From positions 3,100,001-3,164,000 of the forward strand of contig NW_025963868.1 in NCBI RefSeq assembly GCF_023055435.1: a stretch of DNA of 64,000 nucleotides, in the 5' to 3' direction. Source of the stretch: Haliotis rufescens (Eukaryota). Below are positions 8,549-48,400 of the stretch, in pieces. Position numbers and translations under genes: made by a program. The notes beneath the pieces are model-generated. The model searched no databases and had not been told where the DNA came from. It saw only the letters and a list, made by a program, of their open reading frames with translations. Positions within the stretch are counted from its first letter, which is position 1. Each line of letters begins with the position of its first letter.

Positions 8549-8559
8549 ACAAGGAACAA

Positions 8560-9195: not shown

Positions 9196-9552
9196 GACCG
9201 CCTCCGTGGTCTAGTGGTAGAGCGTCCGCCCGGAGAGCGGAAGGTCAGGGGTTCGATCCCCGGCCGCGTCATACCAAAAGACGTCAAAAGATGGTACTTG
9301 TTGTTACCCTGGCTGGCGCTCGGCATTAAGGGGCTAAAACAAGGACCGGTCGGCTCGGAGTCAGAATACTGTGTCTGAGTAGGGTATTCTTGTTAAACTA
9401 CGGCATGGTATCTCAGTGAGGTAGCACTATAAATCGTCATCAGTCCGGACTAGTACAAGCAGCCACACAAACACACACACGTACATGCACGTCGCTACAT
9501 ATATGCAATAATCTTGGACGCGACGTTAAACCCCATTTCACCCCACCTCACC
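9196..9552 (+). mobile_element. tRNA-derived SINE family A, full length, inserted in the 37-bp satellite
   Basis: A-box TGGTCTAGTGG and B-box GGTTCGATCCC in a tRNA-like head, shared body, CCTCAC-type tail. Several other copies in the window. Confidence 0.9.
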
Positions 9553-12806: not shown

Positions 12807-12951
12807 GGTTAGAAGTCATCGATCCACTGCATCTATCTCACGTCAGCCTGCATCTGCTCCTGTTGTTGTACAGTGAAGGATACAGAGACGCGTAGATGTG
12901 GAAGCGTTACTCTGACTGAAGATCCTTGTAGTCTCGCAGTAAGCCCTAGAG

Positions 12952-15900
12952 TCAGCAGTAGAATTTAGACCCGTGGCCTGACTTAGCCGAACTGACATCC
13001 TCGTCATTGAATGTAGCATTGTGGAGCTCGCTGGTGGAACAATATTCTCTGTTACTCACTCCTGGCAGGTAGGCAGCTTGCCTGTGGTTTATAATAGAAG
13101 AGATAAAAATTATGGGGAAAGGAATGTAGGAAACAGAGGTTTCTCATTCAACACTTGAACACTGGGGACATTCTATTTCGATATTAGGGGCGGTCGGGTA
13201 GCCTAGTGGTTAAAGCGTTCGCTCATCACACCGAAAACCCGGATTCAATTTCCGACATGGGTACAATGTGTGAAGCCCATTTCTGGTGTCACCGCCGTGA
13301 TATTGCTGGAATATTGCTAAAAGCGGCGTAAAACCATACTCACTCACTCACTCACTATTTCGATATTCAAATAATTTGACTTTATACTTGAAATTGAATT
13401 ATTATAAAAATGGAACATACATTATATGTCTGTCAAATTTGTAGCCCAAACGAAATACATGTAACGAAAAACCCAACGCGTTCACGAATCATTAAAAACG
13501 CTAAGTGTTTACGTAATAACGCATACAGTTTTATATGTGGTGTAATATTGTTTGTTGTTTGCTTGTTGTTTAACGCCGCAATCAGCAATATTCCAGCTAT
13601 ATGATGGCGGTCTGTAAATAATCGAGTCTGGACCAGACAATCCAGTGACTGACATCATGACCATCGATCCACGTAATTGGCATACGATGACATGCATCAA
13701 CCAAGTCAGCGGGCCTGACCACCCGACCCCGTTAGTCGCCTCTTATGACAACCATAGTCCCATTTTACGGCAAGCATGGGTTGCTGAAGACCTATTCTAC
13801 CCCGGATCTTCACAGGTCATGTTGTGTAATAACTTCAGTAAGAGACGTATTCTTTGAATCATTTGCCTGAAGTAGTTGAATGTTTATTAGATCGCAATAA
13901 TACAGCATTCAATGTCTAGAGATTTATTATTTTGAACTAGTTTTAACTTTATTACTGATTTCCCGAAAGAAAAAGAACCGTGACATATTCCCTATGTTTA
14001 TGCAATGAAACAGTCGTGTTCTTAGTCAGATAACTCCTTAGTACCTGATGCTGGAGAAGGACAACCGGACACCCTCGGCAAAGACTGTGGCGTAGGGAGA
14101 CTCGTTGCTGACATTTGACGCTCTGTTGTTCCGTACTGTCAGGTAGGCAGCGTACCTAGAGGTGACAAACTTACAGTAACAGAAATACTATATGACAAAA
14201 TAAATAAATAATTACTCTTCCTCTGAACCTTTTCATTGAATGTCAACTTTTACTAAGTCAAAATCCTAATGTAGACCAAACTCAATTTACGTTTTATCTT
14301 TTATTTGTTAGATAAATTGTACAAAGATGTGATGACCATTAAGAAATGTACATTCGTTAAATTCTGTTGTGATATCTGTTTTACTTACCTTAATTTCCGA
14401 TTTTCTGAAAAGCAAAACAAAGAGCTATTACCAGTTGTTACACAGTAGTATAAAGTCCAGTACATACATTCGGCAAGTGTCACTGTTATCAGGAAATATT
14501 TCCGTGATTGCTCCATCTCCCAAAGATCACTGGCACTTTCAGTCACATGCTTGCAGCTTCAGTCAATGCCAACAACTTACCTCTCACTCTCCTGCATCTT
14601 CGTATCATCAGGCAGACAACAGCTTACCTCGCACTCTCCTCCATCTACGTATCATGCAGACAACAGCTTACCTCTCACTCTCCTGCATCTTCGTATCAGG
14701 CAGACAACAGCTTACCTCTCACTCTCCTGCATCTATGTATCAGTCAGACAACAGCTTACCTCTCACTCTCCTCCATCTATGTATCAGGCAGACAGCAGCT
14801 TACCTCTCACTCTCCTGCATCTTCGTATCATGCAGACAACAGCTTACCTCTCACTCTCCTGCATCTATGTATCAGACAGACAACAGCTTACCTCTCACTC
14901 TCCTGCATCTTCGTATCAGGCAGACAACAGCTTACCTCTCACTCTCCTGCATCTATGTATCAGTCAGACAACAGCTTACCTCTCACTCTCCTCCATCTAT
15001 GTATCAGGCAGACAGCAGCTTACCTCTCACTCTCCTGCATCTTCGTATCATGCAGACAACAGCTTACCTCTCACTCTCCTGCATCTATGTATCAGACAGA
15101 CAACAGCTTACCTCTCACTCTCCTGCATCTTCGTATCAGGCAGACAACAGCTTACCTCTCACTCTCCTGCATCTTCGTATCAGGCAGACAACAGCTTACC
15201 TCTCACTCTCATGCATCTTCGTATCAGGCAGACAACAGCTTACCTCTCACTCTCCTGCATCTTCGTATCAGACAGAAAACAGCTTACCTCTCACTCTCCT
15301 CCATCTTCGTATGATGCAGACAACAGCTTACCTCTCACTCTCCTGCATCTACGTATCAGACAGACAACAGCTTACCTCTCACCCCCTGTATCTATGTATC
15401 AGGCAGACAACAGCTTACCTCTCACCCCCTGTATCTATGTATCAGGCAGACAACAGCTTACCTCTCACCCCCTGTATCTATGTATCAGGCAGACAACAGC
15501 TTACCTCTCACTCTCCTTCATCTATGTATCAGGCAGACAGCAGCTTACCTCTCACTCTCCTGCATCTACGTATCAGGCAGACAACAGCTTACCTCTCACT
15601 CTCCTCCATCTATGTATCAGGCAGACAGCAGCTTACCTCTAACTCTCCTTCATCTATGTATCAGACAGACAACAGCTTACGTCTCACTCTCCTGCATCTT
15701 CGTAGCAGGCAGACAACAGCTTACCTCTCACGCTCCTGCATCTTCGTATCATGCAGACAACAGCTTACCTCTCACTCTCCTGCATCTTCGTAGCAGGCAG
15801 ACAACAGCTTACCTCTCACTCTCCTGCATCTTCGTATCAGGCAGACAACAGCTTACCTCTCACTCTCCTGCATTTTCGTATCAGACAGACAACAGCTTAC

Positions 15901-18900
15901 CTCTCACTCTCCTGCATCTTCGTATCAGACAGACAACAGCTTACCTCTCACTCTCCTGCATTTTCGTATCAGACAGACAACTGCTTACCTCTCACTCTCC
16001 TGCATCTTCGTATCATGCAGACAACAGCTTACCTCTCAATCTCCTGCATCTTCGTATCAGTCAGACAACAGCTTACCTCTCACACTCCTACATCTACGTA
16101 TCAGACAGACAACAGCTTACCTCTCACTCTCCTGCATCTTCGTATCAGGCAGACAACAGCTTACCTCTCACTCTCCTCCATCTATGTATCAGACAGACAA
16201 CAGCTTACCTCTCACTCTCCTCCATCTATTTATCATGCAGACAACAGCTCACCTCTCACTCTCCTCCATCTATGTATCAGGCAGACAACAGCTCACCTCT
16301 CACTCTCCTCCATCTATTTATCATGCAGACAACAGCTCACCTCTCACTCTCCTCCATCTATGTATCAGGCAGACAACAGCTTACCTCGCACTCTCCTCCA
16401 TCTATGTATCATGCAGACAACAGCTCACCTCTCACTCTCCTCCATCTATGTATCAGGCAGACAACAGCTTACCGCTCACTCTCCTCCATCTATGTATCAT
16501 GCAGACAACAGCTTACCTCTCACTCTCCTCCATCTATGTATCATGCAGACAACAGCTTACCTCTCACTCTCCTCCATCTATGTATCATGCAGACAACAGC
16601 TTACCTCTCACTCTCCTCCATCTATGTATCATGCAGACAGCAGCTTACCTCTAACTCGCCTGCATCTATGTATCAGTCAGACAACAGCTTACCTCTCACT
16701 CTCCTCCATCTATGTATCATGCAGACAACAGCTTACCTCTCACTCTCCTCCATCTATGTATAATGCAGACAGCAGCTTACCTCTAACTCGCCTGCATCTA
16801 TGTATCAGACAGACAACAGCTTACCTCTCACTCTCCTCCATCTATGTATCATGCAGACAGCAGCTTACCTCTAACTCGCCTGCATCTTCGTATCATGCAG
16901 ACAACAGCTTACCTCTCACTCTCCTCCATCTATGTATAATGCAGACAGCAGCTTACCTCTAACTCGCCTGCATCTATGTATCATGCAGACAACAGCTTAC
17001 CTCTCACTTTCCTCCATCTATGTATCAGGCACACAACAGCTTACCTCTCACTCTCCTCCATCTATGTATCAGACAGACAACAGCTTACCTCTCACTCTCC
17101 TCCATCTATGTATCATGCAGACAACAGCTTACCTCTCACTCTCCTCCATCTATGTATAATGCAGACAGCAGCTTACCTCTAACTCGCCTGCATCTATGTA
17201 TCAGACAGACAACAGCTTACCTCTCACTCTCCTCCATCTATGTATCATGCAGACAGCAGCTTACCTCTAACTCGCCTGCATCTTCGTATCATGCAGACAA
17301 CAGCTTACCTCTCACTCTCCTCCATCTATGTATCATGCAGACAGCAGCTTACCTCTAACTCGCCTGCATCTATGTATCATGCAGACAACAGCTTACCTCT
17401 CACTTTCCTCCATCTATGTATCAGGCACACAACAGCTTACCTCTCACTCTCCTACATCTTCGTATGAGGCAGACAACAGCTTACCTCTCACTCTCCTACA
17501 TCTTCGTATGAGGCAGACAACAGCTTACCTCTCACTCTCCTACATCTTCGTATGAGGCAGACAACAGCTTACCTCTCACTTTCCTCCATCTATGTATCAG
17601 GCACACAACAGCTTACCTCTCACTCTCCTACATCTTCGTATGAGGCAGACAACAGCTTACCTCTCACTTTCCTCCATCTATGTATCAGGCACACAACAGC
17701 TTACCTCTCACTCTCCTCCATCTGTGTATCAGGCAGACAACAGCTTACCTCTCACTCTCCTCCATCTGTGTATCATGCAGACAACAGCTTACCTCTCACT
17801 CTCCTCCATCTGTGTATCAGGCACACAACAGCTTACCTCTCACTCTCCTCCATCTGTGTATCAGGCAGACAACAGCTTACCTCTCACTCTCCTCCATCTG
17901 TGTATCAGGCAGACAACAGCTTACCTCTCACTCTCCTCCATCTGTGTATCAGGCACACAACAGCTTACCTCTCACTCTCCTCCATCTGTGTATCAGGCAC
18001 ACAACAGCTTACCTCTCACTCTCCTCCATCTGTGTATCAGGCAGACAACAGCTTACCTCTCACTCCCCTGCATCTATGTATCAGGCAGACAACAGCTTAC
18101 CTCTCACTCCCCTGCATCTACGTATGAGGCAGACAACAGCTTACCTCTCACTCTCCTGCATCTACGTATGAGGCAGACAACAGCTTACCTCTCACTCTCC
18201 TGCATCTACGTATGAGGCAGACTAGAAGAACCACAACAAGGACCAGGAGGACACAGGTGACAGTGTACCCGACGATGTGTACTTGGACCCCCTCGTCTGG
18301 AAATGGCGATGGATGCATGGTATCAGATAGATGTGTTGGACTCGCATAATTTGTAATCAACTGTATTATTAGTGAGGTTGTATGTTCATATTCGATAAAT
18401 GTTACACTGCATCAAGGGAGTCAATGACAACTCCCAGCGAGGCTAAAACAAAGTTGGAAAAGGAATTTCAAAATGTTGATATGCAATGTTCAATGTTCAG
18501 TTAGAATTTAACGTCGCATCGGCATTATTTCAGCCAAACAGCGACGAGACCATGTTGATATATTCACAATCGAGTTATTTATGCAAAGTAATAGTTAAAA
18601 ACAATTTATGAAACATATTTGAGCATACTATATTTAAAAACAATTCAAGGAACATTTTTGAGCATAAGAATGAATTAGGATAAATATCTTCAATACAGTT
18701 GTGTTTTATTTGATTTTGAATCAACAGTTTGTTGAAACAGAATGTTTGAAGTATTACATTGGAGTGATGTTACTATCAGATTATAGCAAGGTCGACTTTC
18801 TAACCAATATTGTGCGTGTTCCGGTAAGACGAGGTGAAAATGTAATAAGTTATTACAGGTTTAATCCAAATAAATGCTTGTATGTTACAGGTTCTGATAC

Positions 18901-21900
18901 CAAGCTTTATCGCCAGCAATGTTGTGGAAGTCTTACAGAAAACTTCCAGCGTCAGGTTCCGTGATGTATTCCCATGCGTGTTGTTGGCGTGACACGTGTA
19001 CTGTCCAGACACAGATCTGTCTACAGCTGGTATATACAACACAGCCTCCCTCTGTCCCGTGATCACCCTCTGTCTGGACCAGGTCACCGTACAAGCGGGC
19101 TTACAGTCAGCAGAACATCTCACTGTGGTAGGTTTCCCTTCTTCTGCCTTTAGCCTGTCACTAGCGCCGTTAAACTGTATATGTTCAGGTCCATCTGTGA
19201 GCAATCGAAATTGAAAGTCGAAAGATAAATATGTCGTGGCCCACTGATTGCCATCAAGCTCATCACACGCATTAAAGGAAGATCCCGGCGGCATTGTGTC
19301 AGGTAAGTATGAAATTTCATTCGGTTGAACAGAGTGAATTAGACTGAAATTGATTTCTCTTGAAGGTAAAGCCAGATATAAAGGGAGGTTATTCACTGTA
19401 GAGGGCGCCACCGTGAGGGGTATATATAGGAATTGTAAAGCCCGGGTAGTTCAATCTCTCCTGTGGTGTCGCCGTTACAGTGCGGTATGTTTATTCTATG
19501 TTTATGTCCGGTGCATTATGGTGATGAACATTTTCTGTTTCTGTGAAAATTTCAATGCAGAGTAAATGCCTCGGCTTGTGCCACAAGGAAGCCACACTGT
19601 GTGTTTGTTGTTTATATCTGGCTTGACGAGAAGCGTCATGGGCGTCACATGTTCAGTGACGAATCAAGGTTTCTTTCAGATCTTATGGATGAGTCGTTTT
19701 TGGAGAAGTTTACAATGGATAGCTTACATAGTTAATGAATGAGAACATTGTAAGGTCTAGTTTTAAAGTTTCACTTCATGGCTCTGTAGAATCGACGCTT
19801 TAGTATAGTAACTGAGCCACCGGGAAATCCGTTTAGAATACAGATTTTCTTCCCAGAATTTTAACACGTGCAATAGATATTCTAGGAACAATAATATGCC
19901 ACACTGTAAACTATCAGAATAAGAATCAGTAATGGGAATTATGTTGTTTAGACTGAAGACATCGAGCATTCTCCCGTCTTTGTAGAACTATAATATATAC
20001 ATGAAACTGATAACCATAATTGTTGTCTGAATAAGGAATGTATGCTGTATGGCTGTAACATACATAACGCTCTTCACATGACCCGGTGGTATTCGACAAT
20101 CATGTTCATGTTTCAATGGTCCACGTTTTCATTATAACTTTATTCTTGTTTAATGACACCCCTGATCATTGGAACACATCTCCGGGACACTAAGCCCCCG
20201 TGAAATCCGTTTAGGATACATCTTTTCAAAAGATATTCAAGCAACAACAATATACTACATTGTAAACTATCAGTATATTAAATCAATACTGATAAACGAA
20301 GGCTTCTTTAAACAGTTCCATTCTACAAGCACCGTCTCCTTGAATCAATGTCTTGTTGTTGAGATGTGAAATTGTCAGCATCTAGTATTCCCCCGCCTTT
20401 GAAGACATATACTATTTACAAGAAACTGTTAACCACAATTGTTGTATGAATAAGGAATCGGTACCACGGAATGAACTGTTTTCAGCAAGATATCGCTCAG
20501 TTGAGGTTAGGTAAACCAGGTATATGCTGTATGCCAGATACATAATGCTCTTCATGTGACCCGGTGGTACTCTACTATCATGTTTGAATGAATATAAGCT
20601 GGAACACGATCCAACATTTTTATCATAACACGACCACATTCTAAACAAACAGATCAAAACAATATCGACATAAATGATTCAATGCAAAGGCAAACATTTA
20701 AAGCCAATGTTGGTAAATGACCACTACTCATTCAAAATGTCATGAAATTTGGTTTATGTTGAGAGGGCAGTCGGTCTCATGATCATTTGTATCGTTTGTT
20801 TGTAAGATTTTAAATTTTGACCTTGTTTTGAGCTTTGTGTTTTACCATGCTAAAACGTTCTCTAAAAATGCGTATTTTGGCTCTGTAGTAAAGTTCGCTG
20901 AAATAACCAGCCTGGGGACTATGAACTCACGCATGTATGTCTCTCCTAATGATGACATCATAATTTGCCCAATGCATATAATTTAGTATTGTTTTTTGTA
21001 TTCTCTGTATTTATGCCAAGTGTTAAATGTCTATCTTTGTTGATACATGTATTTAAAACTGTATGACAAGAGGAAGACCTCAACAATCCAATAGTCAACA
21101 CTCCCTTCATGTCGGGCAATATGCCTGCAGCTCCTTGGTGTCTACATTTCACAACATTAAGTTACAATCGAGCATGATCTTTCTACCAAGATTTCAAAAA
21201 CCTTCATGCAACGCTTGCTCTGAACCTGTTTGTTCAATGTTATAACATCAGCAAAGCTTGTCAAAACGTTTTATGGTAAATATGTGCCTGATTTCCAAAT
21301 CTGACGCATCAGTGACAAAAAGGATGTCCGATGCAATGATGTCTTGTACCATGTGTTTCAGGTGAACAATTGACTTGACTTTGCATGTGTTTGTGACGGG
21401 TGCCACCGGTGGGGCAGGAAAAGATTATCTTTTCGCAAACACCTGGAATCATCACTTTATATATATTTGATAGTAATTCATAAATATTTGTACGTGACAA
21501 AGTCGGAATCGTACAATCGACCTTGTTTTTGGCAGATCTTTTTCATGAATATGGAAAAGGTTTTGTCGCTATTATTTACAAAAAAATGTCACTCAGCACC
21601 AAAGTTGAAAAGATGAAGTATATTTCGTTTTAAATACCCAAAGCAAAGTAAGTTCTTACTCACAGTGAACCTCCAGTACATGTCCGTGACTCCAGTCAGA
21701 CTCCAGCCCCTCCTCCACAGCCTGGCAGGTGTAGATGTCTCCCTGGTTCTCTCTGCTGATGTGGGTTATTGTCAGGTCATCTCCACCTGTATGAGACCCG
21801 TCACCAGATTCTAGCATGGTCCTGTTCCTCCTCCAGGTGTAGGTCATGTTCAGTGGGGGGTGTTCCAGGGGCAGACTCCGAGAGGAGGAGGAGCATGTCA

Positions 21901-23237
21901 GGGTGACATTATCACCTGATACAGTTGAGGCAGGTCCTGTGACGTTAGGTGTGGTCGGCTTCTCTGTTAAAATATTAATATTTCAAAATTAAACAAGCGT
22001 CATAATACTGAATCATTTTATATATCAATTACATAGAGTAAGTGAGTGAGTGAGTATGGTTTCATGCCGCTTTTAGCACAAGTAATATCAGGACGAGCGA
22101 CACTAGAAATTGGCTTCACACATTGTACCCATGTGGGGATCGAACCCGCTTCTTCGGAGTGACAAGCGAACGCTGTAAGAACTTGATTACCCATCGCCCC
22201 AGGTAAATGGAAATCGAATTAACAATGATTTATCATGATGTCTCGACCATTAAATTACTGCAATATTCGAACCTCGTCATCTCTATATCTTATCTTCAGC
22301 AACATGTTGAATCTCCAGAGTTTTCAATCCTTATAACTTAACGTAAATTATATTGTCGACCTTCACCTTTCTGTTAAGGGAAAGAAATATATGTTTTTTT
22401 CGGGTTTCTTCATTAAGCTGTGTTAGGGTTTTACAGCGATAATACCCATGGCACACTTTCCGTGACACAGCTGTACAAGACGTCGGCTTCTCCAATACCT
22501 CTCCTGTTCCATTAACAGATTGTGTCCCGCTCCTGTCCTTCCCCTCCTGACTGTTTTACTTCCTCGTCAACTCTAGGGGTCTACTGTTGATGATACTAGC
22601 AATATAAGCGTTACGTCGATACTTTTTAATGTTTTGTTTTCATAACCGCAATGTATTATAAAACACATTCATTTTTTAACTATTATTCTGTGAGTCTCAT
22701 ATAATACGTACGTGATACAACGAGGACCTGTCTACATCCAGGTACCATCATATTACTGGATGTTTGACATGAGTAAGAACCAGCATCCTGTACAGTAACA
22801 TTGTAGATGGTAAACCTCAGCTGTCCGGTCTGTGATAGTGAGTCCTCCCCTGTGTATCTGATCCTGGTCGTGTAGCCGGTGTGACTGCTGTTGAGTACCA
22901 ATACCCGGTGTGACAGAGGCAGGACCACTAACAGTTTTACCGAACCATTCCTCCATACGAAATATGTGTAGCTGACATTAGCTGGGCTCATAGTTATGTT
23001 AACATCGTAGCCAACACGTGTGACAGTGTGTCGGTAGTCAGCTGTCACGGAGGCCAGACCTGCACATAAATGAAATACTCATCATAGAAACTCATTGATA
23101 AATGAATATTGACAGTTGACAGAAAACAACAACATAAAAACAACTATATATAATGCCAATTCTGTTGACGAAGACAGATACATACCACACCCATACAGTC
23201 CTCCCGCCACAACGTAAAACAAGAACATAGTCGCCAT
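12952..23237 (-). CDS. IgSF type-I receptor, gene 1 (SP-V-Ig-Ig-TM, ITIM-bearing tail, ITAM lost)
   Basis: Predicted exons, all GT-AG and phase-compatible: 23186-23237 (MATMFLFYVVAGGLYGC), 22712-23059 (V-like, DAGSYSC), 21664-21963 (VTLTC..YTW..DIYTC), 18937-19194 (VRC..VTW..GQYTC), 18189-18296 (TM YTVTCVLLVLVVVLLVCLIRRCRR), 14389-14404 (16-nt micro-exon, ENRKLR), 14045-14155 (YAAYLTV..ESPYATV), 12952-13081 (QAAYL..SKFYC*). Confidence 0.82.
13187..13355 (+). mobile_element. tRNA-derived SINE family B, full length
   Basis: tRNA-like head (TAGCCTAGTGG ... GGATTCAATTTCC), GATATTGCTGGAATATTGCTAAAAGCGGCGTAAAAC 3' end, (ACTC)n tail and a 12-bp TSD TATTTCGATATT. Other copies at about 12446-12545(-), 22038-22200(-), 29225-29376(-), 45991-46129(-). 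Confidence 0.9.
13548..13818 (-). mobile_element. SINE-like repeat family C
   Basis: About 270-bp element sharing the CAGCAATATTCCAGC 3' motif, with an (AAAC)n tail. Copies at about 25665-25908, 29647-29863, 41773-42016, 46400-46651. Confidence 0.75.
14570..18222 (-). repeat. 44-bp minisatellite (about 83 copies) derived from the gene 1 TM-exon 3' end plus its 5' splice site
   Basis: Minus-strand unit GTCTGCCTCATACGTAGATGCAGGAGAGTGAGAG|GTAAGCTGTT; the first unit is the real exon end (donor after 18189). Confidence 0.93.
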
Positions 23238-28199: not shown

Positions 28200-28778
28200 A
28201 AAGGAAGCTGAAGAATAGACAAACATGTAGATGTGGAACTGTTCCCTCTCACGAGGCTGAATCTGGTACTGTGGTCCTCTATAGAGGATGCTGAAGGGTG
28301 GAGACACGTGTAGATGTGGAACTGTTCCCTCCCACAAGGCTGCACCTGGTACTGTGGTCCTCTGTAGAGGAAGCTGAAGGGTGGAGACATCCCGTTACAT
28401 TACTCTTCACCTGATACAGTGGTCCTCTGTAGAGGAAGTTGAAGGGTGGAGACACGTGTAGATGTGGAACTGTTCACTCCCACGAGGCTGCACCTGGCAC
28501 CGTGGTCCTCTGTAGAGGAAGCTGAAGGGTGGAGACATCCCTTTACATTACTCTTCACCTGATACAGTGGTCCTCTGTAGAGGAAGTTGAAGGGTGGAGA
28601 CACGTGTAGATGTGGAACTGTTCCCTCTCAGGAAACTACTCCTGGTACCGTGGTTCTCTGTAGAGGAGCCTGAAGGGTGGAGAGACACTCTCTTACATTA
28701 CTCTTCATCTGGTACTGTGGTACTCTGTAGAGGAAGCTGAAGGGTGGAGAGACGTGTAGATGTGAAACTGTTCCCTCA
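28200..28778 (-). repeat. Degenerate tandem copies of the final-exon module (EQFHIYTSLHPSASSTE) running into the gene 2 3' UTR
   Basis: GGAACAGTTCCACATCTACAC and CACCCTTCAGCTTCCTCTACAGAGGACCAC recur several times downstream of the stop at 28705-28707. Confidence 0.85.
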
Positions 28779-31700
28779 GTAGTCGCTCATAATCATGCAA
28801 GGATAAGGAATCCTCGTCGTTGATGGCAGCACTGATGTCACAGGATAGCCTCTCGCCCACCACAGTGAGATATTCACCACACCTATGATTAGAACAATTA
28901 CATCACAATTTAAAGATGACATTAACTTACACAGACGTATGCAGGTATGTTACTTAAATGCGGCTGGCAATGCAACCTATTATATGAAGTGAAATCATTT
29001 CGTTCCAAGCAAATTATCCATCTCGAACACAACAACAACACCACCAGTTAACCGGTTCTGTACTAAAAGTACATTTGTGTGATTACCATCACAAGATGCA
29101 CAAAATACTATCACTTCATCTTTTGCAACACATAAAACCAAATCCAGGCTCGGTTTATTCAGCGAGTGTCTTAGTTTTCACAGGTAGTTTGAGTAAAGGA
29201 TGTCGTTGAACACTAGCGTGAGAGAGTGAGTGAGTGAGTGAGGTTTTACGCCACTTTTAGCAATAGTCCAGCAATATCACAGTGGGGCTTCACACATTGT
29301 ACCCATATCGGGAATTGAACCCGGGTCTTCGGCGTGACGAGCGAACGCTTTAACCACCAGGCTACCCCACCGCCCCATTTTATACAAGAGACAGCAACAG
29401 GTCATGCATTTGGGGTTGTTCTAATGGTAAGTAGTTAACCCGTATTGGATACATACTTCTCAAGCATTTAACCTGAAACAATACAAAATGTATGTACCTG
29501 ATGTCTTGGTCATCTGAAAGTAAAGCAAAAAGAGCATTTGTAAAGTTCTGTAATAAAGGAATCTTTGTAATGTATTTTTTACTGAATAAGAACAACACTG
29601 GCAAAATGAGCCTTCAGCCCTTTTAGACATTTGAAGTAGGGAAACGTTTGTTTGTTTGTTTTTGTCTGTTGTTTCACTCCTTGCGTAGCAATATTCTGGC
29701 TATATGACAGGGTCTGAAATAATCGAGTCTGGACCACACTATCCATTGACTGACGTCGTGCATCAACCAAGCCAGTGATTTTAACCGCCCGAACGCGTTA
29801 CTTGCCTTTTATCACAAGCCTGCTAATAGGCTGAAGAAGACCAATTCTAACCAGGATCTTCATGGCGTGGTGTGGCGTGGTGTGGTGTGTGGGGTGATGA
29901 GTCTACTTATGGTTGATTGCATTGTAAGAGAGTAATTTGTTTACTCACCTTTCACGTCCTTGCAGACAAGAATAGCAACTGCTGCAACCACAACAGCCAC
30001 AGCAGTGAGCATAACAGAGTAGACGGCTACGACAGGGACGATGTCGTCTACGTTTACGTCATCTTCTGGCGTAAGACAAAGGTGAATCACATGTTTATTC
30101 AAAATGATAAGTCAATGCCTACCAATCAGGGACATTTTTTAAACATAGAGACTCCCCATTTTATATTCCATGTTACTTTGAATATACAAATTGATATTCG
30201 GATATAGGCTATGTCTAGCGAATCTTTTATTTGTATACCTGAAAATAGTTTTTGGGTGTGAACATTTCTTTTTTCAAGAAAACGAATCTGAGTAAACCAC
30301 GATCCTTTTCAAGCTAACGAAGCCCTGTCTAGACCTCAGATGTCACTACAACGAAGTTCAAAAAACGAAACGAACAATGAACAATGGCCATAACTTATGA
30401 CGAGGAGTATGACCACTACAGCTAACAAACCAACTGAATCTTTTTCTCAAACATGACGTATTACACCACCCAGGTGATGAGTCATGATGATTCATTTCAA
30501 AGTGTCATAAAAGAAGTATTATGACTTTTAAAATAAAGTATGTCCGCTGGTGCATTTGACTTATTCTTCGATAGGTATAATAAAATCGTTATTGTTATCT
30601 TTTTGTTTTAAAATATTAAGCAATATATTTGACTCCTATTGTGTGCTTCTTGGCTTCAGGAGTTAAATTGGCTTACAGTACGTCGTTCGATAAGTACCAA
30701 ATACGGCAGTTCGAGTTATACGGGCGTTACAAAATCGCATCAACAGACAACCTTTAGAGACCAACCTTCTATCTCCTGGTAGCTCCCTTCTTGTCCCTCA
30801 TCCCGGGTAAATGAGACGACGCTGTTGAAAATGAATAAAAAAGTGATCGAAATAAGACGAAAAGATCGAGGCAAATTAACTGTGGAACACTATCAATTTA
30901 CATTGTGCTCCATATTGTAGAGATGTAGTTTCGCTCTTATGCCATGCAAGGTCATATGACTGTACAGAGGTGAACAATTTATTCATTTCACTTGAATATC
31001 GATGGCAAATACTCACCGGTTATTAATGTTTCCTCCCTCTGAAAGTTACAATGTTCTGCAGTTAATTATATATAATAATGACTCTGATCATTGCATACCA
31101 TTAAAATGCTGGTAACTAGTTTGAATTTTGCACAATGATATTCTTGTATTCTTTTTACACGTTTTGGAGGTTTAGAAGTTTAATAGACACTGCACTGATA
31201 TAATAAAAATAAAGGTCCATCAGTGCTAAACGTTTCTTAGAAGTCACAACTTGACTGCAGATACCAAATAATGGTATGTGTTTAGTTATTACTTAAGGGT
31301 ATGTTCGTTTACAGCTTTCCAAATCAACTACATATATAAGCAAGAACTGTAATGATTCAAGACGACCCTTGTAACATTAAAGAAACATCATCGGAATTAA
31401 TTCATATGGCGTTTGAAATACTAATGATGACTAACAAAACCAACCATCTATTTCCTGGTAGCTCCCGTCTGTTTCTGTGTCCCGGGTATACGTGACCACG
31501 CTGATGTAAAGGATGTTGGAAGTGATTGAAAAAGAAGAAACTAATCAAGGCAAACTCGTCACAAGATAATTTGTGAAACACTATCAGTTTAGATTGTACT
31601 CTAAATGACATAGATAGTTTGGTTTTATAGTCATGCGAGGTCAAATTACTCTGTTTCAGATTTACCCGTTTGCCTTGATGGATAGCAGGTACTCACCGGT

Positions 31701-34700
31701 TATGGAAGTATCCCCTCCCTGAAAGATATAATTTTGTGTTGTTAATCATGTATACAAAATGTAAGATGAAATGTGATAGCTACACGAACTTTGCACAACG
31801 ATATGTGACTGTTTACCCAAGATTGAGGAAAAGTGTCAAAGAAGTATTAATATTGTCATGAAGGCAGTACAACTGTCGACCTTGAAGCTGAAGGTCCATC
31901 AGTGCTATACGTGTCTTCAGAGTAACAAGATCACGACAGAGAAACAAAGCAATGATAAATGTTATAGGCGTTGTGTTATCTTTCTCATCATAGCGACAAA
32001 GAGGGTTTTGTCCTTCAGATTGCCATAACATGTCCACAATTCCACGTATCCTATCGATCGTCACATGCGCACAGCAAAGTCAAAGAGAAAGTGACAAAAC
32101 TACCTCTGAATGATATGAATCATACTTCATACAGTCTTTCTGTTTATCAACAGCGTCGGTATTGTAAGAGCGATGAAATCATGCTATGTTGGTTTGAACA
32201 GAGTCACAGAGAAGGAAGACATTTTCAAATAGAAACCATCCCAGTTGCCTTTTTATTCACATTATCGAAGTTTTCAAATAAGCTTAATTCATATTTATTC
32301 CACTTTCACCACGTCTTCTGACACACTGTATTTATGAGAGAGTAAGGTTTTTCATAGGATCTCAGTTGTAGTATCTCTGAAAGGATATGAAACTCATCCC
32401 TTATGTGCTGGTCACTGATTCCCTTTCCTCGCACAGTCTTGGTTTTGATCCTTGATGATTACTAATAATGACAATCAAGGTCGTCTTTACATTTAATCAA
32501 AATTCAAACACAAGCAAAATTAACTAATGAGCTGTAGGATAGATCCACTTATATAAATAACACAAGCTGATCATATCATATATTACTTGTTAGGATGAAA
32601 CACTTCCTGAGGTAAAAAGCAAGCTCATACAATTATTCAATAACATTTTGTGTTCCTTATGCATTGTGCTGAACTAGCAGTTATTTTATCACCATTCATT
32701 TGAAAGCGTTTACATTGATATTCTATCGTGACAACTATTTCCGCGTGGCGATTCACTGGACTACCCTCACACATCGCATAATGTGAGGACTTTCAAACCC
32801 AGAATAGCTTGTGTAGAATTTGCAGTTGTTTCAGTCGATCAAATAACCCACTTCTCAGGGGTAGTTAATGTTACTGAAGGACGGTTGCTGATATCTTGTT
32901 AAAACAAACCAGTGGTCAATAATGTGAACAACGACCCACACAACCTGGTTAAATTTGGTGTGCACGCATCTATATCCTCCCATGTTCAATTAGGAGACAA
33001 ACGAATTCTGTTTTCAATAAAGAGATTTCGAACGAAGATTTGATACCTGTAAATTTCATTTGAAACCGAACGGAATATCACTTTACACTCTCTCAGTATT
33101 TGTTCGTCAAGATTTCCGACGGAACACTGACACACTTGCTGGAAATACTGTAGGAACCGCAATACGTTATTCAGCAAGGTGAATGAAGAAAGATCAATAT
33201 TGGAATTTGCCAAACGAAAGTGAGAAAGAAGTGCTTCTGAATAAGTATTTTCTTTTGCGGTTTTCTGCACTATCATGGTGTAACTTAGATTCGATACCGC
33301 CAGCGGACCAATAAGAATTGATGATTCTAAAACGTCATGGTAGAATAGTTAATGTGACTCTCACGTTGTACTCAATCACTCTCACATCGCAGTTTTACCT
33401 TTACGTGTCTGTTTTCTACAAACAACAACTATGACAACCACAGCGATGACGACGATCAGGACAGAACAGACAGCAGCCACAGGGACGAGGAAAACGTCGC
33501 TAGCGTCAGTAACCTCATGTGCTGGAACATTCAAAATGGAAAACATGTAGTTTGTCATGATTGTAATCGTGTTGTTTTTTTTATAGATAACCTCTTGGAG
33601 TGCCAGATGGTTGGCTGGAATATTTCATACCAGAGCCATTCCATATCATGCGTATTTTGGTCGGGTGTGGTATTCTTTCTTGTTATTCCTCTCAGTAGAG
33701 TGAGTGAGTGGGTGAGTGTATGGCTTTACGTCGCTTTTAGCAATATTCCAGTAATATTACAGCTTGAATCCTGGAAGATTCGCTTGTCGCGAATGTTGAG
33801 AGCCATTCGAAGACTTGTGTTGAATTACATAGTACATAAACAATGTGTTAGGATTTCTGTCTTAATATTCTTTTGCCACTAGCCTTTGTAGAAAGTTCTG
33901 GAAGCTAGATACACGATATAAGTGGGCGCGTGCCTATCTGTTCTTACAAATTTTAGCTGAGATTACGCAGGGACCCGCTTATATGTGAAGATTACTTTTC
34001 ACCCTGGATTCCTTGCCAAGGCCTATCTCGGAAGCACGACAACTGTTGCGGCGAGGTGCTTATTATTATTATTATCATTGTCATTTCCGTTGTTCTCATA
34101 TTTTATACTGCCAATGAATATTGTACTACCATTCTATTGTGCATTGCAATTGTAATTGCTGTGCAGTAGTTTGTATTGATTTGTAAACTCAGGGAATTTT
34201 GTAATACATTTGCTGATTGTATAACATTTGTTAGCTTTCAATTTGGGACATAAACATAGGTTTTATCCAATCAATGCTGGCATGTTACATATTCAGGTAC
34301 TAAAGTCTATCATCAGCAATGTTGGGAAAGTCTTACAGAAAACTTCAAGCGTCAGGTTCCGTGATGTATTCCCATGTATGTTGTTGACGTGACACGTGTA
34401 CTGTCCAGACACAGATCTGTCTACAGCTGGTATATACAACACAGCCTCCCTCTGTCCCGTGATCACCCTCTGTCTGGATGTGTCCCACCAGGTCACAGTG
34501 CAGACGGGGTTACAGTCAGCAGAACATCTCACTGTGGTAGTTTTCCCTTCTTCTGCCTTTAGCCTGCCACTTGCACCGTTAAACTGTATCTGGTCTGGTC
34601 CATCTGGAATGTGTGAAGTGCTAAGTAAGTCTACATTGTACCTCCAGGCAGCAATGGAAAATGCCAATGCACGCAATAACTGATCCAAAACCTGTCCAAA

Positions 34701-37700
34701 ATGATTTCTGAGAGACAAATGTGCAGTTTGTTTCTGTGACGTTTATGTGAGAATACTTATATGTACACGTGCAGTTTGTGTTTGTAATAAATTTGAAGAA
34801 AAAAAGGTTTCCTTAAACAGACGGATGGACCTACGGACAACAGATGAATGAAACCCATAATATAATTTTACGCAATTTAACAAAAAAGGGATCGTGGGTG
34901 ATTAGCAACAATGCAAATAACGTTCATATTTTATGATACCTGCAAGGAATTCTTTCAGGTAAAGTGTATTCAAGCAGAAAGTATTCTCAGACAAGGAATG
35001 CAAAGTGTTACTTTGAAACAGAAGTAAACGGGGCGAGAGAAAAATGAGAGTAGCGCACAAATAGCAAGTAAAGATAAGGTAAGAGATCTATTCAGACACA
35101 TTGCTTATGACTTCATATATGATGTGTTAATCCGGCATGATCGTTGTATACCGTAAAGAAAGGTGAGACGTCCAAATCAAAACCACCAAGTATTACGTTT
35201 ACAATGGATAGTTTACATAAATGAGAAGGCAATTGAAAAGTTGATGAGAGACAACAATGTAATTTATAATGTTAAAGTTTCACTTCATCGCTCTATAGAA
35301 TCGACGGTATAGTAAAGTATCTAAGCTATCAAGAAATCATTTTAGAATACATAGAATTTCAACCCGTGATCTAGATATTCTTGGAACAACAGTACATTTG
35401 TATATCATTTTGTAAACTATCAGTATTTGAAATCGGTACCGGAAACGAATGCTTCTTAAAACAGTTCCATTCTAAAAGACCACCTCTGTGGTCTAGTGGT
35501 AGAGCGTCCGCCCGCGGAGAGGAAGGTCCGGGGTTCAATTTCCGCCTGCGTCATACCAAAAGCCGTTAAAAGATGGTGCTTGTTGTAACCCCGTCTGGTA
35601 TCTCAGTCAGCTAGCACTCTATATTGTGATAAGTNNNNNNNNNNNNNNNNNNNNNNNNNNNNNNNNNNNNNNNNNNNNNNNNNNNNNNNNNNNNNNNNNN
35701 NNNNNNNNNNNNNNNNNNNNNNNNNNNNNNNNNNNNNNNNNNNNNNNNNNNNNNNNNNNNNNNNNNNNNNNNNNNNNNNNNNNNNNNNNNNNNNNNNNNN
35801 NNNNNNNNNNNNNNNNNNNNNNNCGCGACGTTAAACCCAATTTCACTTCACCTCCGTTCTAAAAACACCGTCTCCTTGAATCATATTGTTGAGTTGAGTT
35901 GTCAGCATGTAGAATTCACCCGCCTTTGAAGAAATTTACTCAGTAAATGAAACTGATAACCACAATTGTTGTATGACCAATGAAATCAGTACAACGGAAT
36001 GAACCGTTTTCAGGAAGATATCGCTCAGTGGAGGGTAGGTCAACCAGGTTTCGCTGTATGCTGTGTGGCTGTATGATACATCATGCTCTTCATATGACCC
36101 GGAGGTACTCGACTATCATGTTCAGCCTTCATGTTTGAATTGTCCATCATAAATACAGCAGGAACATGATCAACGTTCTTACCGTAATACCACCACTTTC
36201 TAAAAAAACAGGTCCAAACAATATCGACTAATATATGTGCTAAGCTAAACATTTGAAGCCAATTTTGGTTGGTAAATGACCACTTCTCAGAGAGTGCTGT
36301 GAACTTTTTGTAGTCATCATACATTTCGAATTCCCTTTGAAAAGGCCTAGGAAGCTGAAACCTTGCATGACTGATTTTGGCTATGGTGCCTTTAATTCCG
36401 ATCCGACCCGCCAATATACTTTGGTAGTAATTATTCAGAACATGAACGTTCTCTGTAGACAATACACAAGACTTCAACAAATACAGCTGTTACAAAGCTG
36501 TCGTTTATAACCACAGTTGCAAAGACAAGGAAAACTTCGTTCTCATTCCTTAAACAAGGTAAGTGCTTACTCACAGTGAACCTCGAGTACATGTCCGTGA
36601 CTCCAGTCAGACTCCAGCCCCTCCTCCACAGCCTGGCAGGTGTAGATGTCTCCCTGGTTCTCTCTGCTGATGTGGGTTATTGTCAGGACATCTCCGCCTG
36701 TGTGAGACCCGTCACCAGATTCCAGCAGGGTCCTGTTCCTCCTCCAGGAATAGATCATGTTCAGTCGGGGGTGGTCCGGGGGCAGACTCCGAGAGGAGGA
36801 GGAGCATGTCAGGGTAACATTCTCACCTGATACAGCTGAGGCAGGTCCTGTGATGGCAGGTGTGGTCGGCTTCTCTGTTAAACATATTGATCTTTAATAA
36901 TTAAAGCAAGGCCATAATATTGCATCACTGTATATATCAAGTTCATAGAGTAAGTGAGTGAGTGAGTGAGTATGATTTTATGTCGCTTTTAGCAATATTC
37001 CAGTAATAACAGGGCGAGCAACACCAGAAATTGGCTTCACACATTGTACCCACGAGGGGATAGAACCGGGTCTTCGGCGTGACGGACCGCCCCCGTGGAC
37101 TAGTGATGTAGAACGTCCGCCCGGAGAGTGTAAAGTCCGGGGTTCGATTCCCGGCCGTGTTATACCACAAGACGTTAAAATATGGTACTTGTTGTTACCC
37201 TGTCCGACGCTCAGCACGTAACACCGTCAAGATGCAACAAGGAGACGACTTCAGAAACTGCAGGGTGTTTTTATTCCCAACGTAGTCTTCCCTGGACCAC
37301 CTGAGACTGAGAGCTTGTCTGGACTAGATGGGACCACGACAGGAACTGCCATGCCTTGTACTATGCTATCTATTTAATTTATCTGTTATCACCTGCTACA
37401 TCCACAGTTGACATATTAATAACTTTTAAGGTACACAGCGGCCTGATATAATCTTTAGTAATCACGACTAACCACATGTGCAGTGATGCTGGTTCTATAT
37501 TATAATATACGTATAATTATTAGTATACATGTATGTTATCGTGTCTTGGCTTATTAGGAATATAGATTTTACTTGGCCATATTACCCTTGGTGCACTTTG
37601 TTACAAGCATTAAGGGGCTAAAACAAGGACTGGTCGGCTCGGAGCAAGTATACTGTGTCTGAGTGAGGATTCATTTTAAACTGCGGGATGGTATCTCAGT

Positions 37701-38997
37701 GTGCTAGCACTATAAATCGGCATCAGTCCGGACTAGTATAAGCAGCCACACACATACACGTGCATGTATGTCGCTACATAAGAGCAATAATCTAAGACGC
37801 AACGTTAAAGCCAATTTCACCTCACCTTACCTCACCTCACCTCACCTCACCTCACCTCACCTCACCTCACCTCACCTTCGGCGTGACGAGCGAACGCTTT
37901 AACAACTAGGCTACCCCACCATGTCTCGACAATTATATTATTGCAATATTCGAACCTCGTCATTTCTATATCTTATCATATACAACACGTTGACTTTATT
38001 TCCCCAAATGTTGTCAGTTTTCCATTGCTATAACATAACGCAAATTAAATTGTCGAGATCCAGTTCAAATTTCTGATGAGTGAAAGTGATACTAGTATAT
38101 ATATTTGCGGGTTTTCTTTCAATCATGCCATATCTTGGAATTTAATTTGTAATCGATGGCAGGAGATTTAAATTCTTAAATTCCAAAGGATAGCGTTAGT
38201 CCCCATGTCACATTACCCGTGTAACAACTGCACAGGTTGTAAATGTGACGTCGATGACGCCGCCTTGCCGAATACCTCAACTCTCCTGTCCCATCATAAA
38301 GTAGTGTTCCGCTTCTTATTAATGGTTTTACTTCCTCTAGAACTCTAAAGGTCTGCTGCTAATGACAATACAAGCGTTCCAGCGATGTTTTTAATGTTTT
38401 GTTTTCATAACGGCAATGTATTTTTATTCATTTCTTGACATATTATTTTTTAACTATTATTCTGTGAGTTCCATATAATACTTACGTGACACAACGAGGA
38501 CCTGTCTACATCCGGGTATTATCTGTTTATTGTTTCCTTGACAGTAGTAAGCACCAGCGTCCTGTACAGTAACATTGTAGATGGTAAACCTCAGCTGTCC
38601 AGTCTGTGATAGTGAGTCCTCCCCTGTGTATCTGATCCTGGTCGTGTAGCCGGTGTGACTGCTGTTGAGTACCAATACCCGGTGTGACAGAGGCACGACC
38701 ACTAACAGTCTCCTCCATACGTAATAGTGGAATCTGACATTAGCAGGATTCATGGTTATGTTAACATCGTAGCCAACACGTGTGACAGTGTGTAGGTAGT
38801 CAGTCACGGAGGCCAGACCTGCACATAAAACAAATACTCATCATAGAAACTCATTAATTAATGAATATTGACAGTTGACAGAAAACAACAACATAAAAAC
38901 AACTATATATAATGCCAAGTTCTGTTGACGAAGACAGATACATACCACGCCCATACAGTCCTCCCGCCACAACGTAAAACAAGAACATAGTCGCCAT
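28705..38997 (-). CDS. IgSF type-I receptor, gene 2 (SP-V-Ig-Ig-TM, ITAM-bearing tail)
   Basis: Exons 38946-38997, 38486-38818 (V), 36575-36874, 34337-34603, TM-A 33399-33521, 31697-31718 (22 nt), 31445-31500 (VVTYTRDTETDGSYQEID), 31017-31038 (22 nt), 30766-30821 (VVSFTRDEGQEGSYQEIE), 29498-29513 (16 nt), 28705-28882 (CGEYLTV..LHDYERLLREQFHIYTSL..*). All GT-AG, with an open frame throughout. Confidence 0.82.
29949..30062 (-). CDS. Alternative transmembrane exon TM-B of gene 2
   Basis: Phase 1-1 exon (Y)DVNVDDIVPVVAVYSVMLTAVAVVVAAVAILVCKDVK, donor GTGAGT, CAGAAG tandem acceptor. An intact copy is present in gene 3. Confidence 0.72.
35478..35856 (+). mobile_element. SINE family A spanning an assembly gap
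   Basis: tRNA-like head and family A tail with a TTCTAAAA TSD. The same insertion is in gene 3 (52005-52191, truncated) but absent from gene 1. Confidence 0.8.
36950..37920. mobile_element. Nested insertion: SINE B(-) interrupted by SINE A(+), itself interrupted by a solo-LTR-like element
   Basis: SINE A is flanked by a 13-bp TSD CTTCGGCGTGACG. The insert at 37217-37605 has (C)GTAAC...GTTACA ends and a 4-bp TSD AGCA. Confidence 0.82.
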
Positions 38998-44999: not shown

Positions 45000-45433
45000 G
45001 TGAAGGAAGCGGAAAGATAGACAAACATGTAGATGTGGAACTGTTCCCTCTCTGAAGGCTGCACCTGGTACCGTGGTCCTCTGTAGAGGAGCCTGAAGGG
45101 TAGAGAGACATCCCCTTACATTACTCTTCACATGGTACTGTGGTCCTCTGTAGAGGAAGCTGAAGGGTGGAGAGACGTGTAGACGTGGAACTGTTCCCTC
45201 TCAGGAAACTACTCCTGGTACCGTGGTCCTCTGTAGAGGAAGCTGAAGGGTGGAGAGACGTGTAGATGTGGAAATGTTCCCTCTCAGGAAACTACTCCTG
45301 GTACCGTGGTCCTCTGTAGAGGAGCCTGAAGGGTGGAGGGACACCCCCTTACATTACCCTTCACCTGGTACTGTGGTCCTCTGTAGAGGAAGCTGAAGGG
45401 TGGAGAGACGTGTAGATGTGGAACTGTTCCCTC
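45000..45433 (-). repeat. Tandem final-exon module copies in the gene 3 3' UTR
   Basis: Same module as 28200-28778, with a different copy arrangement. Confidence 0.85.
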
Positions 45434-48400
45434 AGTAGTCGCTCATAATCATGCAGGGATAAGGCATCCTCGTCGTTGATGGCAGCACTGATGTCACAGG
45501 AAAGCCTCTCGCCCACCACAGTGAGATATTCACCACACCTATGATCAGAACAATTACATCACAATTTAAAGATGACATTAACTTACACAGACGTATGCAG
45601 GTATGTTACTTCAGTGCGGCTGGCAATGCAACCTATTATATGAAGTGAAATCATTTCGTTCAAAGCAAATTATCCATCTCGAACCCCCAAACAACTCCAC
45701 CAGTTAACCCCTTCTGTACTAAAAGTACATTTGTGTGATTACCATCACAAGATGCACCAAATACTATCACTTCATCTTTTGCAACACATAAAACCAAATA
45801 CAGGCTCTGTTTATTCAGTGAGTGTCTTAGTTTTCTCAGGTAGTTTGTGTAAAGGAAGTTGTNNNNNNNNNNNNNNNNNNNNNNNNNNNNNNNNNNNNNN
45901 NNNNNNNNNNNNNNNNNNNNNNNNNNNNNNNNNNNNNNNNNNNNNNNNNNNNNNNNNNNNNNNNNNNNNNNNNNNNNNNNNNNNNNNNNNACTTTTAGCA
46001 ATAGTCCAGCAATACCACAGTCGGGCAAACCAAAAATGGGCTTCACACATTGTACCCATATCGGGAATTGAACCCGGGTCTTCGGCGTGACGAGCGAACG
46101 CTTTAACCACTAGGCTACCCCACCGCCCCATTTAACACAAGAGACAGCAACAGGTCATGCATTTGGGGTTGTTCTAATGGTAAGTAGTTAACCCATATTG
46201 GATACATACTTCTCAAGCATTTAACCTGAAACAATACAAAATGTATGTACCTGATGTCTTGGTCATCTGAAAGTAAAGCAAAAAGAGCATTTGTAAAGTT
46301 CTATAATAAAGGAATCTTTGTAATGTATTTTTTACTGAATAAGAACAACACTGGCAAAATGAGCCTTCAGCCTTTCTTGACATTTGAAGTAGGGAAACGT
46401 TTGTTTGGGGTTTTTGGTCTGTTGTTTCACTTCTCGCGTAGCAATATTCTGGCTATATGACAGGGTCTGAAATAATCGAGTCTGGACCACACTATCCATT
46501 GACTGACATCGTAAACATTGATCTGGGCAATTGGGATACGATGACGTGCATCAACCAAGCCAGTAATTTTGACCGCCCTAACACGTTACTTGCCTTTTAT
46601 GACAAGCCTGCTAATAGGCTGAAGAAGACCAATTCTAACCAGGATCTTCATGGCGTGGCGTTGCATGCCGTGGCGTGGCGTGGTGTGGTGTGTGGGGTGA
46701 TGAGTCTACTTATGGTTGATTGCATTGTAAGAGAGTAATTTGTTTCCTTACCTTTCACGTCCTTGCAGACAAGAATAGCAGCTGCTGCAACCACAACCGC
46801 CACAGCAGTGAGTATAACAGAGTAGACGGCTACGACAGGGACGATGTCGTCTACGTTTACGTCATCTTAAGACAAAGGTGAATCACATGTTTATTCAAAA
46901 TGATAAGTCAATGCCTAACAATCAGGGACATTTTTTAAACATAGAGACTCACCATTTTATATTCCATGTTACTTTGAATATACAAATTGATATTCGGATA
47001 TAGGCTATGTCTTGCGAATCTTTTATTTGTATACCTGAATATATTTTGTGTGTGTGAACATTTCTTTTTTCAAGGAAACGAATTTGAGTAAACTACGATC
47101 CCTTTTAAGCTAACGAAGCCCTGTCTAGACCACAGATGTCACCACAACAAAGTTCAATAAAGGAAACGAACAATGAACAATGGCCATAACTTATGACGAG
47201 GAGTATGACCACTACAGCTAACAAACCAACTGAATCTTTTTCTCAAACATGACGTTTTACACTATCCAGGTGATGAGTCATGATGATTCATTCCAAAGTG
47301 TCATAAAAGAAGTATTATGACTTTTAAAATAAATGTATGTCCGCTGGTGTATTTGACTTATTCTACGATAGGTATGATAAAATCGTTATTATTATCTTTT
47401 TGTTTTAAAATATTACGCAATATATTTGACTCCTATTTGTGCTTCTTGGCTTCAGGAGTTAAATTGGCTTACAGAACGTCGTCCAATAAGTACCAAATAC
47501 GGCAGTTCGAGTTATACGGGCGTTACAAAATCGCATCAACAGACAACCTTTAGAGACCAACCTTCTATCTCCTGGTAGCTCCCTTCTTGGCCCTCATCCC
47601 GGGTATATGAAACCACGCTGATGAAAATGAATAAAAAAGTGATCGAAATAAGACGAAAAGATCGAGGCAAATTAACTGTGGAACACTATCAATTTACATT
47701 GTGCTCCATATTGTAGAGATGTAGTTTCGCTCTTATGCCATGCAAGGTCATATGACTGTACAGAGGTGAACAATTTATTCATTTCACTTGACTATCGATG
47801 GCAAATACTCACCGGTTATTAATGTTTCCTCCTTCTGAAAGTTACAATGTTCTGCAGTTAATTATGTATAATAATGACTCTGATCATTGCATACCATTAA
47901 AATGTTGTTAACTAGTTTGAATTTTGCACACTGATATTCTTGTATTCTTTTTACACGTTTTAGAGGTTTAGAAGTTTAATGGACACTGCACTGATATAAT
48001 AAAAATAAAGGTCCATCAGTGCTAAACGTTTCTCAGAAGTCACAACTTGACTGCAGATACCAAATAATGGTATGTGTTTAGTTATTACTTAAGGGTATGT
48101 TTGTTTACAGCTTTCCAAATCAACTACGTATATAAGCAAGAACTGTAATGATTCAAGACGACCCTTGTAACATTAAAGAAACATCATGGGAATTAATTCA
48201 TATGGCGTTTGAAATACTAATGATGACTAACAAAACCAACCTTCTATTTCCTGGTAGCTCCCGTCTGTTTCTGTGTCCCGGGTATACGTGACCACGCTGA
48301 TGTAAAGGATGTTGGAAGTGATTGAAAAAGAAGAAACTAATCAAGGCAAACTCGTCACAAGATAATTTGTGAAACACTATCAGTTTAGATTGTACTCTAA

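Follow-up and report, generated by a model that had tools for sequence, protein, structure and literature searches.

An abalone Ig-receptor gene with a fossil ITAM and a tail probably trimmed from a dual ITIM-ITAM ancestor

Gene 1 of a Haliotis rufescens cluster of Ig receptors likely acquired its present ITIM-only tail by the trimming of a tail that carried both an ITIM and an ITAM, and its likely role is that of an inhibitory partner to its neighbours, genes 2 and 3; as a reading of sequence features we give this a probability of roughly 0.6. The evidence comes from the window, by which we mean the whole 64,000-nt stretch analysed. Paralogues beyond it are known here from proteins and sequencing contigs alone, and the P-numbered relatives cited below are automated models with names such as 'cell adhesion molecule-like', which are automatic best-hit labels.

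The window contains three tandem minus-strand genes, each with a signal exon followed by three Ig exons. Gene 1, a V-C2-I receptor, has an open, in-phase model of eight exons with GT-AG ends and 440 residues, in the order: the signal peptide exon (23186..23237), with an N-terminus identical to that of P0001; the V-type Ig exon (22712..23059), which is 100% identical to P0001 of H. rufescens and 84.7% to gene 2, has Pfam Ig matches under the cut-off, and has 48 further matches besides P0001, 47 of them named as Haliotis proteins; the C2-like second Ig exon (21664..21963; Pfam Ig_2, E 2.5e-9; 89-91% to genes 2 and 3); the I-set third Ig exon (18937..19194; Pfam I-set, E 6.6e-10; 88-91% to genes 2 and 3); the transmembrane (TM) exon (18189..18296), homologous to P0016, P0050, P0051 and P0052; a 16-nt cytoplasmic mini-exon (14389..14404), which agrees in length and phase with 29498-29513 of gene 2; exon A (14045..14155), with AYLTV and SPYATV; and the last exon, exon B (12807..13081), which is coding to 12955, continues as a fossil frame and extends into an N gap. 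The 5' end of exon B is a tandem duplicate of the 5' end of exon A (0 of 2000 shuffles as good). Gene 2 (28705..38997) has an open 12-exon V-C2-I model of 513 aa, with two hydrophobic exons, a YQEI loop between them and an ITAM in the last exon (28705-28882). Gene 3 (45361..55301) has the same layout in an open 12-exon model of 555 aa, its ITAM likewise lying in the last exon (45361-45538). A Pfam search returned no family for the receptor tails.

The disrupted ITAM of gene 1

The ITAM consensus is Yxx[I/L]x6-9Yxx[L/I] (PMC9546547), and in genes 2 and 3 the last exon conforms to it with YERL-x7-YTSL. The tail of gene 1 as coded today lacks such a motif and has one strict ITIM ([I/L/V/S]xYxx[I/V/L]), namely SPYATV (14083-14100); AYLTV misses that consensus at position -2. 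The minus-strand frame of exon B from 13080, read past its stop, reproduces exactly the translation quoted in the sequence-only reading, which had proposed a fossil ITAM here. Three in-frame stops interrupt it: TGA (12954-12952), TAG (12948-12946) and TAA (12909-12907). Alignment of the dead frame with relatives reveals YKDL-x8-YASL on the minus strand at 12883..12930, with YKDL starting at 12930 and YASL at 12894. This fits the consensus with a spacer of eight residues, lies behind the TGA and the TAG, and is split between its two tyrosines by the TAA, which occupies the position of a Glu in the relatives. The dead frame ends with RCRLT and a stop codon at 12840 (12838..12840), and this aligns with the ends of P0059 and P0061 (RCRVM and stop) as the ancestral end of the tail.

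The post-stop DNA aligns with the last exons of the neighbours beyond shuffle expectation: gene 2 beats 1999 of 2000 dinucleotide shuffles (one as good) and gene 3 all 2000 (none as good). The ITAM string that had been quoted for both genes is right for gene 2, while in gene 3 a single residue is changed (NDEDAL). Stronger support for the fossil ITAM comes from the existence of intact versions of the gene 1-type tail, and we hold it to be real with high confidence.

It had been noted from the outset that the stops might be assembly errors, and exon B does abut a 185-N gap at 12806. However, all 36 of the sampled words are contained in 6 of the 24 listed runs, which come from three studies and represent six samples of organism A (all six runs are flagged as possible assembly sources, yet the samples are separate). 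In a seventh sample, X7, one contig of depth 12.2 spans bins 12807-13160, leaves the TAG unchanged and, as the sole cover at the TGA, has no difference there among the rows listed. The linker is also common to other species, where it is ungapped. These words and the X7 contig refute an assembly error for the TAG and the TGA, and we leave this explanation of the stops only a negligible chance.

The first two stops lie in a lesion (12924..12960, minus strand) composed of two imperfect copies of an ancestral T-A-D-Y stretch (12960-12945 and 12941-12924), the first of which is out of frame. The copies match in 15 of 18 columns, which is marginal when taken alone (36 of 1000 shuffles as good). With the frame shifted by one base the sequence reads TAD, and TADY is present in all five printed relatives (P0051, P0052, P0053, P0055 and P0059); the post-hoc chance of the TAD match is about 3.5e-4. 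Relative to genes 2 and 3 the excess is 51 nt (12996-12946), starting with GTCAGT and ending with CTCTAG, and had been read as extra sequence holding two stops. Against P0059, however, the net excess is 7 codons, not 17: a net insertion is there, but the ancestral linker accounts for 10 of the 17 'extra' codons. Probably, then, a frameshift and duplication of net 21 nt created the first stop; this is argued on translations, because the relatives are known here as proteins, not as DNA. An origin of the 51 nt as a copy of the exon A donor flank was rejected, with 1424 of 2000 shuffles as good.

In the mechanism we propose, a small frameshift and a tandem duplication of ~20 nt in the linker (net +21 nt) would have put T-A-D out of frame, and by this one-base shift and duplication the out-of-frame A-D codons would have become TGA. 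The stretch past the TGA would then have decayed, with a Glu codon turning into TAA and later a TTG into TAG. The mRNA of gene 1 would escape decay because the stop lies in the last exon, and would encode a 440-aa V-C2-I-TM protein with SPYATV and AYLTV in its tail. Gene conversion would have kept the ectodomain like those of the ITAM-bearing neighbours, or else unequal crossing-over would have swapped it in. Upon ligand binding the ITIM of gene 1 would attract a phosphatase of the SHP or SHIP type, and Syk signalling from the neighbours would be dampened.

The stops had been proposed for comparison with sister species. X14 (organism C) yields a 487-nt contig of depth 18.2 that spans 12807-13087 ungapped, with 13 differences. 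Its matching depth starts exactly at 14045, the intron bins are empty, and its leftover 134 nt fit exon A, the mini-exon and 7 nt; from depth, bins and leftover length we infer the exon A-B join. Both X14 and X13 (organism D), which are classed as RNA by guess, have TTG in place of the TAG and YEDL in place of YKDL. Each of the 40 difference rows listed has close to full share in at least one run, and the TGA is not among their positions. Since X14 is the sole cover there, the TGA appears to be common to gene 1 and organism C, and on the listed rows to organism D as well. The TAA probably persists in both, with no full-share row at 12909 among the rows listed, although the site sits under paralogue cover. 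An order of TGA first and TAG last would be that predicted for decay after truncation. In X8 (organism B), whose contigs leave 12925-12983 uncovered, conservation of exon A is weak on the listed rows (0 of 59 against 10 of 177, p 0.053). Two interspersed repeats in the intron dominate the contig matches across the tail region, and the RNA runs of organism A are small-RNA libraries or hold next to no words.

These contigs bear on two ways in which an ITAM tyrosine might still be expressed. The sequence-only reading had suggested that the first two stops could be spliced out: a cryptic intron of 51 nt (or 114 nt) would leave a half-ITAM isoform with a single YKDL. The indel relative to genes 2 and 3 has GTCAGT and CTGACTCTAG as its borders, the acceptor scores 5.3 (real sites span 1.8-14.9, and it is in the top 3% of the 134 AGs within introns), and the donor at 12996 is in the top 9% of 146 GTs, though the matrix is crude, being built from 29 sites and scoring the acceptor of the soluble exon at -3.6. 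Outside organism A, however, the change of TAG to TTG in organisms C and D removes the acceptor (CTCTAG to CTCTTG), which counts against splice rescue, and their RNA-like contigs span the stretch ungapped. Moreover, 30 of the 51 nt align with the coding linker of P0059, the shortest of 29 modelled introns is 125 nt, far above 51, the donor at 13059 scores 0.2, and the TAA would still interrupt the ITAM. Splice rescue is thus unlikely, with odds that we set well below one in ten. A hemITAM has an acidic triad directly before a single YxxL; in the spliced product four residues would separate the acidic run from the tyrosine.

A TGA followed by C is a leaky stop context, and C does follow the TGA of exon B. 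Read-through could then give an ITAM-bearing long form where the TAG is TTG, as in organisms C and D with their YEDL. Two further stops follow in H. rufescens, however, the TAA probably stands in C and D also, and the TGA itself resembles a frameshift by-product; we consider such a form highly improbable.

Some minor features of these exons may be added. The donor of exon A is weak and, if it were unused, the protein would end two residues later with the ITIM retained (window 14045-13888); three AATAAA signals within 160 nt past exon A mark a possible alternative 3' end. Exon B has two more in-frame acceptors, at window 13048 and 13030, which correspond to junctions in isoforms P0055 and P0052 of H. 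rubra; their scores here are weak, and splicing at any of the acceptors still runs into the TGA.

Intact relatives and the ancestral tail

The clade of gene 1-type tails was reached by searching with P0016, a relative of exon A, and with exon B as an X-read-through; its members are gene 1, P0059/P0061, P0051-P0055, P0016 and P0050. The intact tail P0059 (XP_071095538.1) was matched among 1.84 billion representatives with E 2.6e-8, and the best matches of exon B over 66 residues are P0061 (XP_071095537.1; 57.6%) and P0059 (53.0%). Both are H. cracherodii proteins, modelled without a TM exon, whose tails run SSHGS-DATA-DYETL-x8-YTAL and carry the ITIM SPYATV together with an intact ITAM. A word search that used the read-through exon matched none of 19 candidates, and P0060, the second match of the tail search, was dropped as repetitive and unrelated.

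The ITIM, as SPYA[TR]V, is present in all nine tails of gene 1 type, and the ITAM with its eight-residue spacer is retained in six of the nine (four loci or models when isoform pairs are counted once), the three without it being gene 1, P0016 and P0050. The latter two, from H. rubra, join the gene 1-type tail to Ig domains and terminate exon B in differing ways. With the ITIM in 9/9 and the ITAM in 6/9, the parsimonious reading is of an ancestral tail with both motifs from which gene 1 lost the ITAM. The presence of an ITAM in both other tail types likewise makes loss in the gene 1 line parsimonious, and on the same reading the ITIM would predate that loss. A strict ITAM is found in 22 of 49 relatives. 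Multi-copy contigs in all four runs differ at 12891, 12888, 12876 and 12846, where they encode T, A, P and V as P0059 does; hence a P0059-type paralogue is probably present in organism A too.

An activating-to-inhibitory switch had been proposed earlier on the basis of genes 2 and 3. Loss of an ITAM survives from this proposal, but the ITIM would already have been ancestral and the tail trimmed from a dual one. The direct form of the switch would make gene 1 a receptor of gene 2/3 type that received an insertion and an ITIM exon, in keeping with its ectodomain, 89% identical to theirs, and with its post-stop DNA, which matches theirs. Yet the TM exon, mini-exon and exon A of gene 1 show 64-68% identity to the dual-motif clade and only about 33% to genes 2 and 3, which are thus no model of the ancestral state of this tail; also, the eight-residue spacer and the end of gene 1 are those of P0059/P0061, while the spacer of genes 2 and 3 has seven. 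As regards the tail a direct switch is already largely refuted, and we accord it hardly one chance in twenty.

A third tail type, with LTYAD and YEEI, occurs on the same ectodomain family in P0005, P0023, P0032 and P0056 (H. rubra, H. asinina) and is a candidate for a further inhibitory partner.

Shared ectodomains and the product of gene 1

Genes 1-3 are adjacent, and over Ig2+Ig3 gene 1 is 89.4% identical to genes 2 and 3 as against 65-69% to its ITAM-bearing tail relatives; the ITAM-keeping models of the tail clade have ectodomains 61-70% identical to gene 1 where alignable. The tails diverge (~33% identity) and bear opposite motifs, an ITIM in gene 1 and an ITAM in genes 2 and 3. On sequence features, gene 1 with genes 2 and 3 is a paired-receptor pattern.

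An ectodomain tree of 51 of the 54 rows (P0012, P0031 and P0051 omitted) groups the sequences by species, not by tail type: gene 1 falls with gene 2/3 types of H. rufescens and H. cracherodii (98/88), and P0016 and P0050 among H. rubra ectodomains (99/93). Monophyly is rejected both for the six tail-clade rows (p-AU 9e-5) and for the three ITAM-less rows (p-AU 1e-5), in a set seeded with the gene 1 V domain and with an earlier tree viewed before the clade tests. Ongoing conversion or repeated shuffling could account for the grouping by species.

The main rival to an ITIM-only membrane receptor accepts the fossil ITAM but takes much of the membrane form to be a fossil as well: in H. rufescens gene 1 would mainly make a soluble decoy or be a decaying gene, with its ITIM a passenger. 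The NCBI model of gene 1 is a soluble protein of 332 aa, and an alternative last exon (18402..18442, minus strand) translates as the C-terminus of that model, P0001. Further, a tandem array of 83 44-bp units (14570..18222, minus strand) repeats the 3' end of the TM exon with its splice donor. It places 77 copies of the donor GAG/GTAAG after the TM exon, use of a later one leads to a stop after 14 codons, and the array may push gene 1 towards the soluble form. The listed X14 differences in exon B before the stop (3/3) and both of those in exon A alter residues, and the H. rubra models end exon B differently. Set against this, the eight exons of gene 1 are open and in phase, RNA-like tail contigs occur in organisms C and D, and SPYA[TR]V is kept in 9/9 tails. 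We judge a soluble or decaying gene improbable, though at close to one chance in four it deserves serious weight.

The topology of genes 2 and 3 adds a complication to the proposed pairing. Their hydrophobic exons (33399-33521 and 29949-30065 in gene 2; 50211-50333 and 46752-46865 in gene 3) flank an acidic loop that contains a pair of YQEI motifs; both exons have an acidic N-side and look N-out, and the exon phases permit skipping of either one. Among the 49 relatives, each of the 22 proteins with a strict ITAM has at least two hydrophobic segments. With two N-out segments the ITAM would lie outside unless one exon is skipped; hence, judging from these segments, the TM exons must be used alternatively, or a helix must be re-entrant, or the ITAM must be outside. 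The ITAM may not always face the cytoplasm, and genes 2 and 3 are labelled 'activating' on the basis of their motifs.

Known receptor systems and further features of the window

Among molluscs, the oyster receptors CgIgR, with ITAM-Syk coupling (PMC6994640), and CgNCAM1, with ITIM-SHIP2 coupling (PMC11841013), resemble the abalone cluster as Ig receptors with such motifs and reported downstream enzymes. They differ in having five Ig domains or three Ig and FN3 domains, and appear as single genes, with no pair described in the accessible parts of these sources (PMC6994640, PMC11841013). The mammalian CEACAM family, as in dog CEACAM1/CEACAM28, offers a closer parallel, with ectodomains of V and C-type Ig domains in a tandem cluster, block exchange of the exons for TM and tail, and homogenised ectodomains; in CEACAM21 and CEACAM29, ITAM-type tails are shortened by a premature stop or a lost donor (PMC2110893). 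However, the ITIM tails and the ITAM tails of CEACAMs form distinct lineages, and a truncated tail is left with no motif (PMC2110893), whereas the ancestral abalone tail would have had both motifs and its truncation leaves the ITIM; the likeness is one of the Ig fold and of these features. Siglecs 5/14 and 11/16 and PILR alpha/beta are likewise linked genes with similar ectodomains and different intracellular parts, but their activating partners use DAP12 (PMC13358205), while the ITAM of genes 2 and 3 is in their own last exon. The Alr cluster of Hydractinia is an invertebrate tandem IgSF cluster in which ITAM/ITIM tails diverge more than ectodomains; it differs by an FN3-like extracellular segment, by its allorecognition role and, in the accessible part of PMC9546547, by the lack of any described fossil ITAM.

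Most known pairs of activating and inhibitory Ig receptors come from vertebrates. Our literature search found neither an abalone family of gene 1 type nor a molluscan receptor pair in the titles and abstract starts covered, a scope outside which most subscription journals fall; the accessible text of a review of invertebrate IgSF (PMC11999971) has 0 matches for abalone, Haliotis or paired. It is possible, and we offer this tentatively at somewhat less than even odds, that abalones possess a paired immune-receptor system of their own, which would be convergent with the mammalian Siglec and CEACAM pairs, in which ITAM receptors and ITIM-only partners share species-homogenised ectodomains and the inhibitory arm came from the killed ITAM of a dual tail. 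While motif loss by a premature stop is ordinary in such receptor families, a mollusc cluster in which the origin of the inhibitory tail can still be read would, if this is true, allow a test of whether ITAM/ITIM balancing arose more than once, and by which route. One genus holds intact dual, trimmed and ITAM-only tails, which makes tail-swap reporter assays straightforward.

Several further features of the window were observed. In gene 3 the second Ig exon (window 52548-52772) has an in-frame internal duplication of 108 nt, and a loss of 7 nt at the acceptor of the second TM exon (46865) leaves AAG as an in-frame site. Tandem copies of the second half of the ITAM, in units of 83 and 148 bp, occur in the 3' UTRs of genes 2 and 3 (28192-28777; 45004-45433), and in some of the copies FHIY is still legible. 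A cluster of intronless ORFs of 220-427 aa at window 58522-63896 includes a duplicated pair (59953-61405); four of its ORFs, when scanned, gave no Pfam family above the cut-off, and our impression, and only that, is of a mobile or viral insertion. Downstream of gene 1 lie large satellite arrays at 2345-3754 and 6073-11045 (70 bp x 20; 37 bp x >100), and near 943-1609 there are what we take to be fragments of a Tc1-like transposase.
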